A stretch of 6,450 nucleotides of DNA from a virus. Lineage: Duplodnaviria; Heunggongvirae; Uroviricota; Caudoviricetes. This document shows positions 2,795 through 6,450 of the stretch, piece by piece. The notes under the pieces were generated by a model. It made no database searches, had not been told where the DNA came from, and saw only the letters and a list, made by a program, of their open reading frames with translations. Made by a program: the position numbers and the translations under genes. Position 1 is the stretch's first letter, and each line of letters starts with the position of its first letter. The DNA lies in IMG/VR virus record IMGVR_UViG_2698536403_000004; one strand, given 5' to 3'.

Positions 2795-3076
2795 ATGGAA
2801 GAATTAAGAATATTTCTCAATTCTCTTTCGTCAGATGAACAGCGTATGTTTGCATGCGAGTGTGGTACCAGCATCGGTTATCTAAGAAAGGCATTGAGTA
2901 AAGGTCAAGTGTTAGGGGCATCGTTATGTGTCCTTATTGAGCGAGCCAGTAATGGTGAAGTTACACGTCAGCAACTAAGGCCTTTTGATTGGATGAATAT
3001 TTGGCCCGAGCTGGAAGATACCAAAACGTTAACACAACCACTTTCTAGGAGCTTGATTCATGAAAATCAAGCATGA
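2795..3076 (+). CDS. ydaS: Cro-like HTH regulator of the YdaS type (93 aa)
   Basis: AAGGAG 6 nt upstream of ATG; divergent from the repressor; protein pattern ...CGTSIGYLRKALSKGQ...IERASNGEVTRQQLRPFDW resembles the YdaS/Cro-like family as I remember it; not verified by search. Confidence 0.55.
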   Translation: MEELRIFLNSLSSDEQRMFACECGTSIGYLRKALSKGQVLGASLCVLIERASNGEVTRQQLRPFDWMNIWPELEDTKTLTQPLSRSLIHENQA

Positions 3077-3485
3077 ACACATCCGCATGGCGATGAATGC
3101 CTGGGCGCGTCCTGATGGCGAAAAAGTTCCAGCAGCTGGAATAACCCAGGCTTATTTTGAGTTGGGTATAACGTTTCCTGAACTGTATGACGACAGCCAT
3201 CCGGAAGCCCTGGCTCGCAATACACAGAAAATTTTCCGCTGGGTAGAGAAAGACACCCCTGATGCTGTTGAAAAAATTCAGGCGTTGTTACCAGCGATCG
3301 AAAAGGCAATGCCACCTTTGCTGGTGGCCCGAATGCGCAGCCACAGTTCAGCCTATTTTCGGGAGCTGGTGGAGACGCGGGAACGACTGGTGAGAGACGC
3401 TGATGATTTTGTCGCAGTGGCGATTGCCGGTTTCAATCAGATGAACCGTGGTGGCCCTGCAGGAAATGCCGTGGTGATGCACTAA
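3060..3485 (+). CDS. ydaT: YdaT-like protein (141 aa), in the cII-equivalent position
   Basis: AGGAG 8 nt upstream of ATG at 3060; overlaps the preceding gene by 17 nt; N-terminus MKIKHEHI matches my recollection of YdaT family proteins; follows the Cro-like gene as in Rac-type prophages. Confidence 0.5.
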   Translation: MKIKHEHIRMAMNAWARPDGEKVPAAGITQAYFELGITFPELYDDSHPEALARNTQKIFRWVEKDTPDAVEKIQALLPAIEKAMPPLLVARMRSHSSAYFRELVETRERLVRDADDFVAVAIAGFNQMNRGGPAGNAVVMH

Positions 3486-3493
3486 AAGCACGG

Positions 3494-3715
3494 ATGGCGT
3501 TAACAATGACGGAGGGGGCTGTGAATCTACCTGATTTTTTTACTGTTCTTGCCTGTGGTATTGGTGGGGCTCTGGCCGGACATTTTATCGTGAATCTGTT
3601 CACCTGGTATCTCTTTGGTTTCAGGGATTACTTCACCCGATGGACTTTAAATTGTCTTCGTCGGTTCATTGGGCGCAAGCCTGATATGAGGATTTGGAAA
3701 GATGAAAAACGCTGA
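3494..3715 (+). CDS. Small hydrophobic protein, one predicted TM segment (65-73 aa depending on start)
   Basis: ORF with TM-like stretch FFTVLACGIGGALAGHFIVNLFTWYLFGF; the best RBS (GGAGG, 5-nt spacer) precedes GTG at 3521 rather than ATG at 3494; stop lies 4 nt from the stop of the convergent minus-strand gene. Confidence 0.4.
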   Translation: MALTMTEGAVNLPDFFTVLACGIGGALAGHFIVNLFTWYLFGFRDYFTRWTLNCLRRFIGRKPDMRIWKDEKR

Positions 3716-3719
3716 TTGT

Positions 3720-4115
3720 TTATGGCATCGGGAGGCCGTTTTTCTCCCGATATCGCTCGATCTCTGCCTGAATTGCTGCAACAGCACACATGGAGTCGTA
3801 CTGGATCAGTCTGAGATTTTCAATCGTGAATTTGTCTTCCTCCATCAGGTTGAGCATACGAAAGTATCGAAAGACGTAAACTTCTGGGCCGCTGACACCA
3901 TACCCCTTTGCCTTCGATATGGTTTGGTGGAGCTCCCATTCTTTCAATGCGAGGGTGAGAGCCATTTCTCTTATTTTTGCTCTGGCTTCAGCAGCCCGGC
4001 GTTGCGCTTCAATGGTTCGTTCCGATTTGCGTTGCCAGGCACCATTAACCAGCGAAACCACGCCAGCAACACACGCACTCAACACAACGCTACTTGTGAT
4101 AGTTGCAAAATCCAT
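3720..4115 (-). CDS. Membrane-anchored protein (131 aa): N-terminal TM helix followed by a basic, helical cytoplasmic domain; moron-like, function unknown
   Basis: ATG at 4115 with GAGGAGG 6 nt upstream; TATAAT (complement of 4155..4160) upstream on the minus strand; product MDFATITSSVVLSACVAGVVSLVNGAWQRKSERTIEAQRRAAEARAK...; positive residues after the TM place the C-domain in the cytoplasm. Confidence 0.65.
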   Translation of the reverse strand: MDFATITSSVVLSACVAGVVSLVNGAWQRKSERTIEAQRRAAEARAKIREMALTLALKEWELHQTISKAKGYGVSGPEVYVFRYFRMLNLMEEDKFTIENLRLIQYDSMCAVAAIQAEIERYREKNGLPMP

Positions 4116-4194
4116 TTCGAACCTCCTCTGGTTCTGTTGATTAGTGAATCACAGATTATAACCAGAGGAAGGTTTGGCTCCAGACGAGGTGAAC
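4116..4194. promoter_or_regulatory. Divergent promoter/RBS region between the moron and the replication gene, with an imperfect inverted repeat (4121..4133 vs 4160..4173)
   Basis: Minus strand: TATAAT then GAGGAGG then ATG. Plus strand: possible TGTTGA -35 and TATAAC -10, then GAGG 5 nt before ATG 4195. CCTCTGGT / ACCAGAGG form an exact 8-bp inverted repeat. Confidence 0.4.
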
Positions 4195-5280
4195 ATGCGT
4201 GATTATGCAAAAGTTTCCCCGCGATTCTGGCTGGGAGAAACGGGGAGAGAACTTAGAAAGGCGGGTGCAGAAGCGCAAGTTGTTGCTTTTTACCTGATGA
4301 CATCCCCTCACGCAAATATGTTGGGTTTGTATTACCTGCCAGTTTTGTACCTTGCTCATGAAACCGGGCTTGGTCCGGAAGGGGCTTCGAAGGGGCTTAA
4401 AAGGGCTGTTGAAGCTGGTTTTTGTAGCTATGACCATGATGCCGAGATGGTCTGGGTCCATGAAATGGCAGCCTGGCAGGTTGGGGAAACGTTGAAGCCT
4501 GGAGATAACCGTTGTGCAGGTGTCAGGAATGAGTATGCATCATTACCTGAAAACGCCTTTCTGTCAGCCTTTTACGACAGATATAAAACGGATTTCCATC
4601 TGGATGTGAGGCGGAATAATCGCCGGAATTCAGCAAGGGGCTTCGAAGAGGCTTTAAAGGGGCTTCTAAGCCAAGAACAGGAACAGGAGAAAGAACAGGA
4701 GCAGGATAAAAATACTATGCTTCATGGCGAAAAAATCGCCACGAACCAGGCAGGGGATGTTCAGAACGTCAATCCTGGTCAGCCAGCAGGCACGACACCG
4801 GAAGCCGATTCGGGCGCTGTGCAGCAGGCGATGACCGCAAGGCCGGAACAATCACACCAACTGCAGCAGCCTGAAGCCGATTCCGCCATTCAGCGGGAAG
4901 CCGATCAGGTAGTCCCGGAAAACACCGGGCAGCCTGTGGGACGAGTGGATTATCCGGATGTGTTCGAACAGGTCTGGCGGGAATACCCGTTGCGTGCCGG
5001 AGCAAACCCGAAGAAATCCGCTTTCAGTGCCTGGAAGGCCAGATTACGCGAGGGGGTGCCACCAGAGGCCATGCTGGATGGCGTGAGGCGTTACGCAAGA
5101 TACCTGGCGACTACCGGGAAAACGGGAACGGAATTTGTTCAGCGAGCGACGACGTTTTTTGGACCGGACCGGAATTTTGAAAACCCCTGGTTGCTCCCGG
5201 TAAGCGGCACGAACAACCAGCGTTGTGTGAATCATGTTTCTGAACCGGATACCGAAATTCCGCCAGGCTTCAGGGGGTAA
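4195..5280 (+). CDS. Putative replication initiation / replisome-organiser-type protein (361 aa; YdaU/O-position analogue), with a low-complexity acidic Q/E-rich linker
   Basis: ATG at 4195 with GAGG 5 nt upstream (in-frame TTG at 4174 is an alternative); sits where O-type genes lie; C-terminal segment DYPDVFEQVWREYPLRAGANPKKSAFSAWKARL...FFGPDRNFENPW resembles conserved phage replication-protein C-terminal domains as I remember them; unverified. Confidence 0.55.
   Translation: MRDYAKVSPRFWLGETGRELRKAGAEAQVVAFYLMTSPHANMLGLYYLPVLYLAHETGLGPEGASKGLKRAVEAGFCSYDHDAEMVWVHEMAAWQVGETLKPGDNRCAGVRNEYASLPENAFLSAFYDRYKTDFHLDVRRNNRRNSARGFEEALKGLLSQEQEQEKEQEQDKNTMLHGEKIATNQAGDVQNVNPGQPAGTTPEADSGAVQQAMTARPEQSHQLQQPEADSAIQREADQVVPENTGQPVGRVDYPDVFEQVWREYPLRAGANPKKSAFSAWKARLREGVPPEAMLDGVRRYARYLATTGKTGTEFVQRATTFFGPDRNFENPWLLPVSGTNNQRCVNHVSEPDTEIPPGFRG
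4379..4666. repeat. Short direct repeats inside the replication gene: AAGGGGCTT at 4379, 4390, 4635 and 4657, including an exact 14-mer AAGGGGCTTCGAAG at 4379..4392 and 4635..4648
   Basis: Read directly; two pairs about 250 bp apart; further repeats GAACAGGA x3 (4675..4700) and GAAGCCGAT x3 (about 4801, 4874, 4898) lie in the linker. Confidence 0.6.
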
Positions 5281-5320
5281 GTGTTTATTTCAGGTCATGA
5301 GGTAATTTTCAGGAGGGCTT

Positions 5321-5746
5321 GTGGCAAAAGTTTTTACACAAGAAGAGCGAGAAAAAATTAAAGGGCAGGTTGTTGAGCTAGTACGCCGGAGTGGGCGCGA
5401 GACGTTACGGCAACTGGAAGCCAAGACAGGTGCGACAAGATATCTGATGAGCGTTCTCGCCAGAGAGCTGGTTGCCAGTGGTGATGTATACAACTCTGGT
5501 TACGGGTTATTCCCGTCTGAACAGGCTCGTAAGGACTGGCAAAACGCCCGCAAAAAACTCTCAAGGGCAAAGCTGAAGAAAAAAACACCTGTGGTTGATC
5601 CGGACCTTATCTGGTCGTTACCAGACGGAGAAATACGTCGTTATGACAGGCGTCAGAACATAATCTGTAGCGAGTGCCGGAAGAGCGAAGTTATGCAGCG
5701 CGTGCTGGCGTTTTATCAGGGGAATTTTCAGGAGGTGGTGCTGTGA
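5321..5746 (+). CDS. Hypothetical protein (141 aa), possible winged-helix-like N-terminus
   Basis: GTG start at 5321 preceded by AGGAGGG (short 4-nt spacer); long ORF co-directional with the replication gene; product MAKVFTQEEREKIKGQVVELVRRSG... Confidence 0.5.
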   Translation: MAKVFTQEEREKIKGQVVELVRRSGRETLRQLEAKTGATRYLMSVLARELVASGDVYNSGYGLFPSEQARKDWQNARKKLSRAKLKKKTPVVDPDLIWSLPDGEIRRYDRRQNIICSECRKSEVMQRVLAFYQGNFQEVVL

Positions 5747-6245: not shown

Positions 6246-6450
6246 GTAAGCGTGCAGCAAGAACCGTATTGACGGGGATGTGTTATTCAGTCGGCAGTGC
6301 TACGCGCCAGGGGAGCAGTTCGCCGACCCGGCGTTACGGTCGTCACGAACGTAGGTCCATAACCGCCCGGTCTTCGTTTTCTTATTGCCTGGCAACAGCA
6401 CCGGGACAGGCGTGTCATCAGCATGGAGCTTACCGTCAGTCAGCACATAG
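6246..6450 (-). mobile_element. IS66-family insertion sequence remnant: terminal GTAAGCG end at 6246 and an internally deleted transposase; continues past the window
   Basis: Minus-strand translation gives ...HADDTPVPVLLPGNKKTKTGRLWTYVRDDRNAGS, matching the middle of IS66-type transposases as I remember them, then jumps in another frame to a C-terminal-like tail ...ELLPWRVALPTE-stop; the plus strand carries GTAAGCGTGCAGCAAGAACCGTATTGACGG at 6246, consistent with the 5'-GTAA terminal repeat of this family. Confidence 0.55.
6283..6449 (-). pseudogene. IS66-family transposase fragment with a large internal deletion and frameshift (junction near 6315..6327)
   Basis: N-terminal/middle homology ends after RDDRNAGS (about 6324); the C-terminal tail is read in a different frame (6286..6327) and ends at the stop 6283..6285. 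Confidence 0.5.

Follow-up and report, generated by a model that had tools for sequence, protein, structure and literature searches.

Phased 9-bp repeat arrays inside a phage replication initiator gene: a candidate origin in a Qin/Rac-like prophage of E. coli

In bacteriophage lambda, the origin of replication (ori-lambda) lies in the middle of gene O, with iterons and an AT-rich tract, and extra iterons add residues to the O protein (PMC7466680). Likewise, oriL of phage SPP1 is located within gene 38, is bound by the product of this gene, gp38 (G38P), and lies next to an AT-rich unwinding element (PMC6316719). Here we describe a stretch of viral DNA of 6,450 nucleotides (nt) (IMG/VR virus record IMGVR_UViG_2698536403_000004; the whole stretch is called the window hereafter), which corresponds to the early region of an E. 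coli prophage, lambdoid and Qin/Rac-like. At 4195..5280 on the plus strand, it carries a gene for a replication initiator or replisome organiser of 361 amino acids (aa), as recognized from the list of open reading frames (ORFs), the PHROGs matches and an AlphaFold model. An earlier note on this DNA had pointed to direct repeats inside this gene as possible origin iterons. Our analysis suggests that one of them, the 9-mer AAGGGGCTT, is probably a double-stranded DNA binding site (iteron) of the gene's own product, and that the core of the origin probably lies inside the initiator gene.

The 9-mer AAGGGGCTT occurs in four exact copies in the window, at 4379, 4390, 4635 and 4657, all on the plus strand. 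Only 0.10 copies would be expected, and four copies were reached in none of 200 shuffled sequences. A fifth copy with one mismatch (AAGAGGCTT) was found at 4646, and all five copies lie inside the replication gene. They form two clusters with a start-to-start spacing of exactly 11 base pairs (bp), 4379/4390 and 4635/4646/4657. Cluster 1 (4379..4398, plus strand) consists of two exact units and encodes E62-L68 (EGASKGL). Cluster 2 (4635..4676, plus strand) consists of AAGGGGCTT, AAGAGGCTT and AAGGGGCTT followed by a terminal half-unit, AAGCCAAGA, and covers the codons for aa 147-160, the units being read as ARGF-EEAL-KGL. An exact 14-mer, AAGGGGCTTCGAAG, is common to both clusters, at 4379 and 4635. 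The four copies and the shared 14-mer had already been reported in the earlier note and were verified directly in the sequence; the 11-bp period, the fifth copy and the spread of the copies over three reading frames go beyond it. Because a step of 11 bp is not a whole number of codons, every one of the three frames is used among the copies, the five units being translated as E-G-A, K-G-L, R-G-F, E-E-A and K-G-L, and the 11-bp period excludes a peptide period.

The protein matches PHROG 1701, whose name 'DnaD-like helicase loader' is an annotation only, and two PHROG families of replication initiators (3729 and 270), the initiator families aligning with aa 164-361. No Pfam match was obtained for the whole protein at E <= 0.01, and none for the N-terminal domain even at E <= 10; NCBIfam and PDB sequence searches with this domain gave no match either. 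At E <= 10, the C-terminal part matched only PhyR_sigma2 (E 0.025, below the cut-off of this family). In an AlphaFold model built on a 29-sequence alignment, the N-terminal domain (aa 1-145, 4195..4629, plus strand) is predicted with confidence (predicted local distance difference test scores of 81-94 over aa 10-140), and its order of helices and strands (H25-36, E45-47, H50-57, H60-73, E77-80, E85-88) is that of a canonical winged helix. In agreement with the model, Foldseek returned weak generic winged-helix matches only. The model is disordered at aa 145-160 and 174-246 and contains a C-terminal three-helix domain (aa 255-307, 4957..5115, plus strand), which we infer to be a partner-recruiting module. 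Since helix 3 is the usual DNA-reading helix, cluster 1 would encode the N-terminal half of the predicted recognition helix. Cluster 2 is located in a disordered segment in which amino acid changes are cheap, which fits selection at the DNA level overriding the peptide.

Matches to phages in BLAST searches break at gene nt 511-519, corresponding to window positions 4705-4713, which mark a mosaic junction. Klebsiella, Acinetobacter, LMessi and Fraca phages have only gene nt 1 to ~512-519 in common with the window, while Tritos, Evi and others share only gene nt 511-1086. The N-terminal module (N-module), which travels with the 9-mer arrays and comprises both clusters and the Q/E repeat that follows them, is thus joined to many unrelated C-terminal modules (C-modules). 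The genes following the initiators that bear this N-module vary as well (DnaC-like loaders, a primase-helicase or nothing), and the flanking regulators also differ. Because the N-domain alone always accompanies the sites, it is most likely the binding protein.

This arrangement resembles that of lambda in several respects: the initiator gene itself houses the origin-like array, at the point where an N-terminal DNA-binding module meets a C-terminal partner-recruiting one and a flexible linker is encoded, the N-module and its sites are exchanged together between phages, and changes in repeat number add or remove residues (PMC7466680). Following the lambdoid example, the earlier note had placed its possible iterons in the linker between the domains of the initiator. 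This is borne out for cluster 2, a DNA-level element at the domain boundary, but not for cluster 1, which falls in the codons of the recognition helix. The iterons of lambda are considerably longer, about 19 bp. In contrast to lambda, the window has 9-bp units at an 11-bp period in two clusters ~250 bp apart, one of which shares codons with the recognition helix; its conserved AT-rich stretch is found between the clusters and precedes the main array; and the same site sequence is kept across very distant hosts. Unlike lambda O, moreover, the protein matches neither Phage_rep_O nor any other Pfam family. The counterpart in SPP1 is a set of direct repeats, bound by the organiser, inside the organiser's own gene and beside an AT-rich unwinding element, with an organiser that works with a separate loader and helicase (PMC6316719). 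Unlike the SPP1 type, the N-domain of the window has no significant sequence match to Phage_rep_org_N (PF09681). The layout of a replisome organiser, with a winged-helix N-domain, a partner-recruiting C-domain and an adjoining helicase or loader gene, is recognizable, although the window itself has no loader gene. Iterons of plasmids are typically 17-22 bp long, phased at ~22 bp and located outside the rep gene. The window differs from iteron plasmids whose initiators are of the winged-helix type (RepA/pi; RepA_N, e.g., PDB 4pta) by its 9-bp units, its 11-bp period and the location of the units inside the gene. The N-domain was found in only 10 plasmid records, mostly in prophage-like regions of large or mislabelled replicons, and this search thus gave no evidence for a plasmid replicon. 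By analogy, the locus would work like the lambda and SPP1 origins while not being a sequence member of the O or Phage_rep_org_N families.

To compare homologues at the DNA level, sequences were collected from annotated phages, 79 genome loci (Gamma- and Betaproteobacteria and assorted metagenome-assembled genomes, MAGs) and 80 viral contigs, and were reduced to 68 non-redundant homologues with less than 90% amino acid identity. The codons of cluster 1 are strongly conserved in this set (E62 GAA 100%, G63 GGG 100%, A64 GCT 81%, K66 AAG 98%, G67 GGG 92%, L68 CTT 85%); five codons are in use for the spacer residue S65, the 2-nt spacer varying freely. Similar values were obtained for cluster 2 (E151 GAA 100%, K155 AAG 100%, P156 CCC 88%, S159 AGC 98%, Q160 CAA 80%). 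The background frequencies in the same sequences are 0.21 for GGG, 0.18 for GCT and 0.12 for CTT, and range from 12 to 23% for GGG, GCT, CTT, CCC and AGC. At other conserved Gly and Leu columns, the top codon accounts for 29-54% and the entropy is 1.7-2.4 bits; the 2-nt spacer and neighboring conserved Gly and Leu columns together range from 1.6 to 2.4 bits (saturated). Conservation of the DNA beyond the needs of the protein, for which the earlier note had proposed a comparison of homologues, is therefore found: the synonymous positions stay nearly fixed, and it is the peptide of cluster 2 that changes. This is the reverse of a kept peptide with synonymous drift, which the note had named as speaking against binding sites.

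Cluster 2 is often present as the reverse complement, AAGCCCCTT, which encodes A-P-S-K-P-L and not G-A-S-K-G-L, and in which the 11-bp phase is kept. This version occurs in PhiR5_2, Shigella phage 75/02 Stx, Acinetobacter phages and most non-enteric loci, and it still directly precedes AGC-CAA and the Q/E repeat. Of the 68 sequences, 40 have only reverse units in cluster 2, ~9 have only forward units and ~12 have both; cluster 1 has the forward orientation. A spacing of exactly 11 bp between neighboring units holds for 77/87 cases in cluster 2 and for 54/59 cases in cluster 1. When exact 9-mers were counted in 63 loci (322 kb), 148 fell within the two zones and 17 elsewhere, corresponding to a ~200-fold enrichment. 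In Acinetobacter loci, two more units are present in the untranslated leader, at -38/-27 from the start codon. Finally, both clusters are changed to GRGAGGGGTY in locus L087, and matched variants of the 9-mer occur in both clusters of L086 and of L064/L066; in the divergent lineages L087 and L086, the motif of both clusters changes together with the helix-3 sequence. Taken together, these sequence comparisons demonstrate that the 9-mers are selected as DNA, are phased, do not depend on orientation and are inherited together with the N-module, and we conclude with high confidence that the AAGGGGCTT arrays are cis elements acting at the level of DNA.

The Acinetobacter leader units lie just upstream of the ribosome-binding site (L004 ~2960-2985; also L022, L023, L033, L034, L038 and L054) and suggest either autoregulation or a third iteron cluster. 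From the last unit of cluster 1 to the last unit of cluster 2, the distance in the 68 homologues is mostly 244, 255 or 267 bp, and the two clusters are offset in their 11-bp register by 1-4 nt in 53/58 cases (gene nt 184-470). This preference may reflect either conservation of phase or shared ancestry (phylogenetic inertia), and it was kept out of the evidence. Extra upstream arrays in L059, a gammaproteobacterial MAG contig, were rejected as a separate site cluster, as they belong to a tandem second copy of the whole gene. The two slightly diverged initiator genes of this contig (1404-2318 and 2501-3421) each have their own site clusters, and the Q/E linker of the second copy is frameshifted.

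Between the clusters, just upstream of cluster 2, the AT-rich segment 4540..4620 is a candidate DNA-unwinding element. It has the lowest GC content of the gene (0.38-0.42), and a family-wide excess of AT, peaking at +14.5%, was observed in 97% of the 68 homologues at 50-110 nt upstream of the S159 codon (~4560-4620). Since third codon positions for aa 116-150 are shifted toward AT by 8-13%, amino acid composition does not explain all of this excess. The conserved stretch is therefore suggestive of an unwinding element, though not decisive. The earlier note had instead drawn attention to an A-rich tract downstream of the repeats (4705..4740, plus strand; GATAAAAATACT...GAAAAAATC), which contains the mosaic junction at ~4705-4713. 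The top strand is indeed A-rich over 4660-4740 (AT skew +0.54 to +0.59), the region being moderately AT-rich with a GC content of 0.42-0.43. This tract is not conserved in the family, where the mean AT content at +40 to +70 nt from the S159 codon is ~6% below the gene mean, and on these grounds it was rejected as a conserved unwinding element.

An alternative N-module is found on the same C-module in phage Tritos (L007) and in E. coli MLI107 (L008). It weakly matches Phage_rep_org_N (PF09681; E 0.016, below the cut-off) and has its own word, GTCACG, in two arrays with a spacing of 10-11 bp, thus recalling the SPP1 type. In L007, one array lies inside the domain (2658, 2668, 2678 as GTCACA, and 2689; span 2658-2694) and the other before the acidic TDKD linker and the junction (2918, 2928, 2938, 2949 and 2959; span 2918-2964). 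The word occurs in 10 copies, compared with 2.1 expected, and this number was reached in 0/200 shuffles. The same two arrays are present in L008. Two N-modules with different words but the same two-array layout represent an independent replicate of this layout.

In the mechanism that we propose, the winged-helix N-domain would bind the 9-bp sites, which lie one helical turn (11 bp) apart, and with this spacing the bound molecules would be aligned on one face of the DNA. The two-unit cluster at 4379-4398 and the three-and-a-half-unit cluster at 4635-4676, ~250 bp apart, would be bridged into one nucleoprotein complex, which would strain and open the conserved AT-rich stretch between them (~4540-4620). 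The C-terminal module, through the acidic disordered Q/E linker, would recruit a helicase or its loader. The recruited partner may be a DnaC-like protein or a primase-helicase in relatives, while host factors are presumed here, the window containing no such gene. We infer that the initiator would be the binding protein, that the complex would melt the DNA and that replication would start at this place.

Several points weigh against such an origin. The 9-bp units are much shorter and more tightly packed than classical iterons of 17-22 bp, and the AT-rich stretch is moderate (GC ~0.38-0.42) and partly due to F/Y/K/D-rich coding. A few divergent homologues (L068, L074 and L081) lack cluster 1, which may thus be accessory; since L068 and L074 keep cluster 2 without cluster 1, cluster 2 looks like the primary array. 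Strings of tandem units had no occurrence in the literature searched, and among the matches listed for the single 9-mer none concerned this family of replication genes. Of the replication proteins of Eru phages, to which relatives of the window belong, nothing is known according to PMC8951638. The leader units of Acinetobacter, which are located just upstream of the start codon and thus in a typical autoregulatory place, would also fit autoregulation.

These leader units favor a different explanation, in which the initiator binds the 9-mers for regulation only, by an autorepression roadblock, titration or handcuffing, and strand opening takes place elsewhere in the phage. We regard this as unlikely, though deserving consideration. 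The lack of a strong AT-rich element agrees with it, as does the lack of DnaA boxes above the level of chance in the scan (5 found, 5.1 expected). On the other hand, the near-universal array at the domain boundary of the initiator gene, beside a conserved AT-rich stretch, corresponds to the situation in the lambda and SPP1 origins (PMC7466680, PMC6316719), and a second, unrelated N-module has the same two-array layout. Furthermore, iteron systems can combine regulation with origin function, and regulatory binding is usual for them.

The sites could also be bound by a host factor or by another phage protein. The 9-mer is unusually conserved across Gamma- and Betaproteobacteria, as the site of a host factor might be. 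However, the flanking phage genes differ between loci, and the N-domain is the only constant companion of the sites; in L087 and L086, the helix-3 sequence and the motif of both clusters are altered jointly; and flanking DNA lacks the motif, which does not correspond to a DnaA box. As helix 3 covaries with the sites and DnaA boxes are not above chance, a host factor is improbable, and we assign little weight to this explanation.

Still less probable is that the conserved DNA at the end of the N-module (the units plus AGCCAAGARCAGGA) serves as a recombination linker for the exchange of N- and C-modules and is not a protein-binding array. The mosaic junction does lie immediately downstream (~4705-4713), and AGC-CAA with the Q/E repeat is common to very distant homologues with unrelated C-modules. 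Yet cluster 1 is equally constrained at a distance of 250 bp from any junction, the 11-bp phasing, the flips in orientation, the covariation of the clusters and the leader copies have no role in homologous exchange, and the Tritos-type module joins the same C-module without sharing the conserved patch.

The earlier note had itself offered an alternative, in which a duplicated peptide motif and a variable linker are the sole source of the repeats; the linker would be of low complexity, and the repeats would have no function at the DNA level. This explanation applies to the other two repeats in the gene. GAACAGGA occurs three times, at 4675, 4681 and 4693 (0.2 expected), within a (CAR GAR)n hexamer repeat (4672..4704, plus strand) that encodes the acidic linker QEQEQEKEQEQ. 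GAAGCCGAT also occurs three times, at 4801, 4873 and 4897 (0.04 expected), with intervals of 72 and 24 nt; every copy is in frame and encodes E-A-D within the C-module's disordered linker (4801..4905, plus strand), where a 24-nt peptide unit is duplicated. Both counts agree with the earlier note and are above chance. A comparison of copy numbers among relatives, which the note had also proposed, revealed that the numbers of both the Q/E and the GAAGCCGAT repeats vary. The Q/E hexamers display ordinary synonymous variation in the 68 homologues, their number differs among near-identical relatives, and in other lineages they are replaced by KE, TE or QD repeats. Tritos has a fourth copy of GAAGCCGAT through a 24-nt duplication, and in PhiR5_2 one copy is GAAGCAGAT and the third copy is frameshifted; a synonymous variant is seen in a 77%-identical homologue. 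The idea that GAAGCCGAT is a reverse-type unit (GAAGCCGATTC vs. GAAGCCCCTTC) was set aside, as the repeat is in frame, has spacings that are multiples of 3 and does not conserve its synonymous sites. As judged from these variants, GAAGCCGAT is a peptide unit that was duplicated within a disordered, frameshift-tolerant linker, and GAACAGGA and GAAGCCGAT alike are by-products of a low-complexity, slippage-prone protein linker and not sites.

For AAGGGGCTT, in contrast, a peptide origin is hardly credible. EGASKGL is in frame at both clusters in Klebsiella-type homologues, as this explanation would have it, but the units of the window are read in three frames, the peptide of cluster 2 takes several forms (GASKGL, APSKPL, RGFEEALKGL) with the synonymous sites frozen, and both reverse-complement arrays and non-coding copies occur. 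These four features rule it out for the 9-mers. Equally implausible is a long-range mRNA stem between cluster 1 and a reverse-complement cluster 2 that would control translation or stability: the two clusters are exact reverse complements in most non-enteric homologues and could form a stem of ~20 bp, but the clusters of the window and of other enteric members have the same orientation, are unable to pair and are equally frozen, and with spacer dinucleotides complementary in only 13/52 cases (mostly the self-complementary CG), mixed orientations, direct repeats in the leader copies and GTCACG arrays, and no Rfam family matching at the replication gene, RNA pairing was rejected, chiefly on account of the same-orientation enteric members and the non-complementary spacers.

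Within the preferred reading of the arrays as iterons of the initiator, a further idea can be put forward tentatively, and we consider it possible rather than probable. The origin would be self-referential, one site pair being the DNA that encodes the start of the initiator's own recognition helix (EGASKGL = GAAGGGGCTTCNAAGGGGCTT). The specificity of the protein and the sequence of its sites would then be mutually constrained, which would account for the 9-bp word having stayed fixed from Enterobacteriaceae to Acinetobacter and Burkholderiales. In other lambdoid phages, the iterons differ from phage to phage.

The C-terminal tail of the initiator (...SEPDTEIPPGFRG; 5242..5277, plus strand) is matched by the NCBIfam model of DnaT (E 0.0017, aa 338-361). 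The match of ...EPDTEIPPGFRG to the extreme C-terminus of this primosomal protein is weak, as is that to PDB 6aep. The ending IPxGFRG recurs on otherwise unrelated C-modules of the family and may be a short motif at which a replication protein of the host docks.

The Eru4 reference, Shigella phage 75/02 Stx, carries a full-length homologue of the initiator gene, and a gene for a DnaC-like loader comes next. DNA identity is 76.6% across 100% of the initiator gene, and the two proteins align from end to end. Cluster 1 of this homologue has the same sequence as in the window, and its cluster 2 is the reverse-complement version. Unlike Eru4, the window has neither stx nor a loader gene, and the initiator is followed by a DUF977/Ren-like gene (5321-5746, plus strand). 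Eru4 is defined by gene content only, with no origin or iterons given (PMC8951638), and no information on an origin or iterons was found in the Eru papers (PMC8951638, PMC8044961). A DnaC-like loader gene and a DUF1627 gene are absent after the initiator in the window, and likewise in phage Tritos and E. coli HY220605. Both genes are present in O157 and Eru4 relatives with a nearly identical C-module (L009 4186-5724, L002 4096-5632). This suggests either that a phage loader is optional with the C-module of the window or that the prophage is defective.

Upstream of the initiator, the minus strand of the window carries a DUF1482 gene, dicB (720-1013), the antisense small RNA DicF (1083-1134; Rfam, 75 bits), a DUF1391 (ydfA-like) gene and a cI-like regulator (2275-2694), and the plus strand a YdaS-like (2795-3076) and a YdaT/CII-like gene (3060-3485). 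The presence of DicF and dicB marks the element as a Qin/Rac-type prophage. DicF, which is located far from the 9-mer repeats, was the sole family found in an Rfam scan of the whole window. A minus-strand ORF of 131 aa (3720-4115; PHROG 36733, no Pfam match) sits upstream of the initiator, where O157 prophages have a gene of the ECs1072 family; DNA similarity between the window and O157 begins at ~4107, within the 5' end of this ORF. The short divergent intergenic region between this ORF and the initiator gene is occupied by a perfect 10-bp inverted repeat, TCCTCTGGTT / AACCAGAGGA, at 4124-4133 and 4160-4169 with 26 nt between the arms, which may be an operator or an RNA hairpin. Scans for sigma-70 promoters and terminators over 3650-5400 gave results at the level of chance.

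At the right end of the window lies a fragment of an IS66-family transposase (6300-6446, minus strand; Pfam DDE_Tnp_IS66, E 4e-9). As similarity to intact prophages ends at ~6248, the prophage is interrupted at this end. In the closest complete E. coli genomes, 78% of the window is matched at ~96%, and the N-terminal half of the initiator gene differs. The window's version of the initiator is present at an identity of at least 99% in 15 genomes and at 90-95% in ~455 genomes, mostly of O157:H7.

Origins embedded in initiator genes are already known from lambda and SPP1; the unusual features of the window, as yet unproven, would be the short units, the one-turn spacing, the bipartite arrangement and the overlap with the recognition helix. 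Should the origin indeed be self-referential, bipartite arrays with free relative orientation would bracket and open the AT-rich DNA between them, and a compact architecture with one turn per site, distinct from classical iteron origins, would be at hand. The arrays also provide a clean natural example of how DNA-level and protein-level repeats within one gene can be separated, by an 11-bp period, three reading frames, reverse-complement versions and non-coding copies. At this one locus, two different N-modules both follow the rule that a specificity module moves with its own sites. Our findings thus offer a concrete candidate pair of origin and initiator sites for a widespread initiator family without a Pfam model, which spans Eru4 Shiga-toxin phages, O157:H7 prophages and prophages of Klebsiella, Acinetobacter and Burkholderiales.

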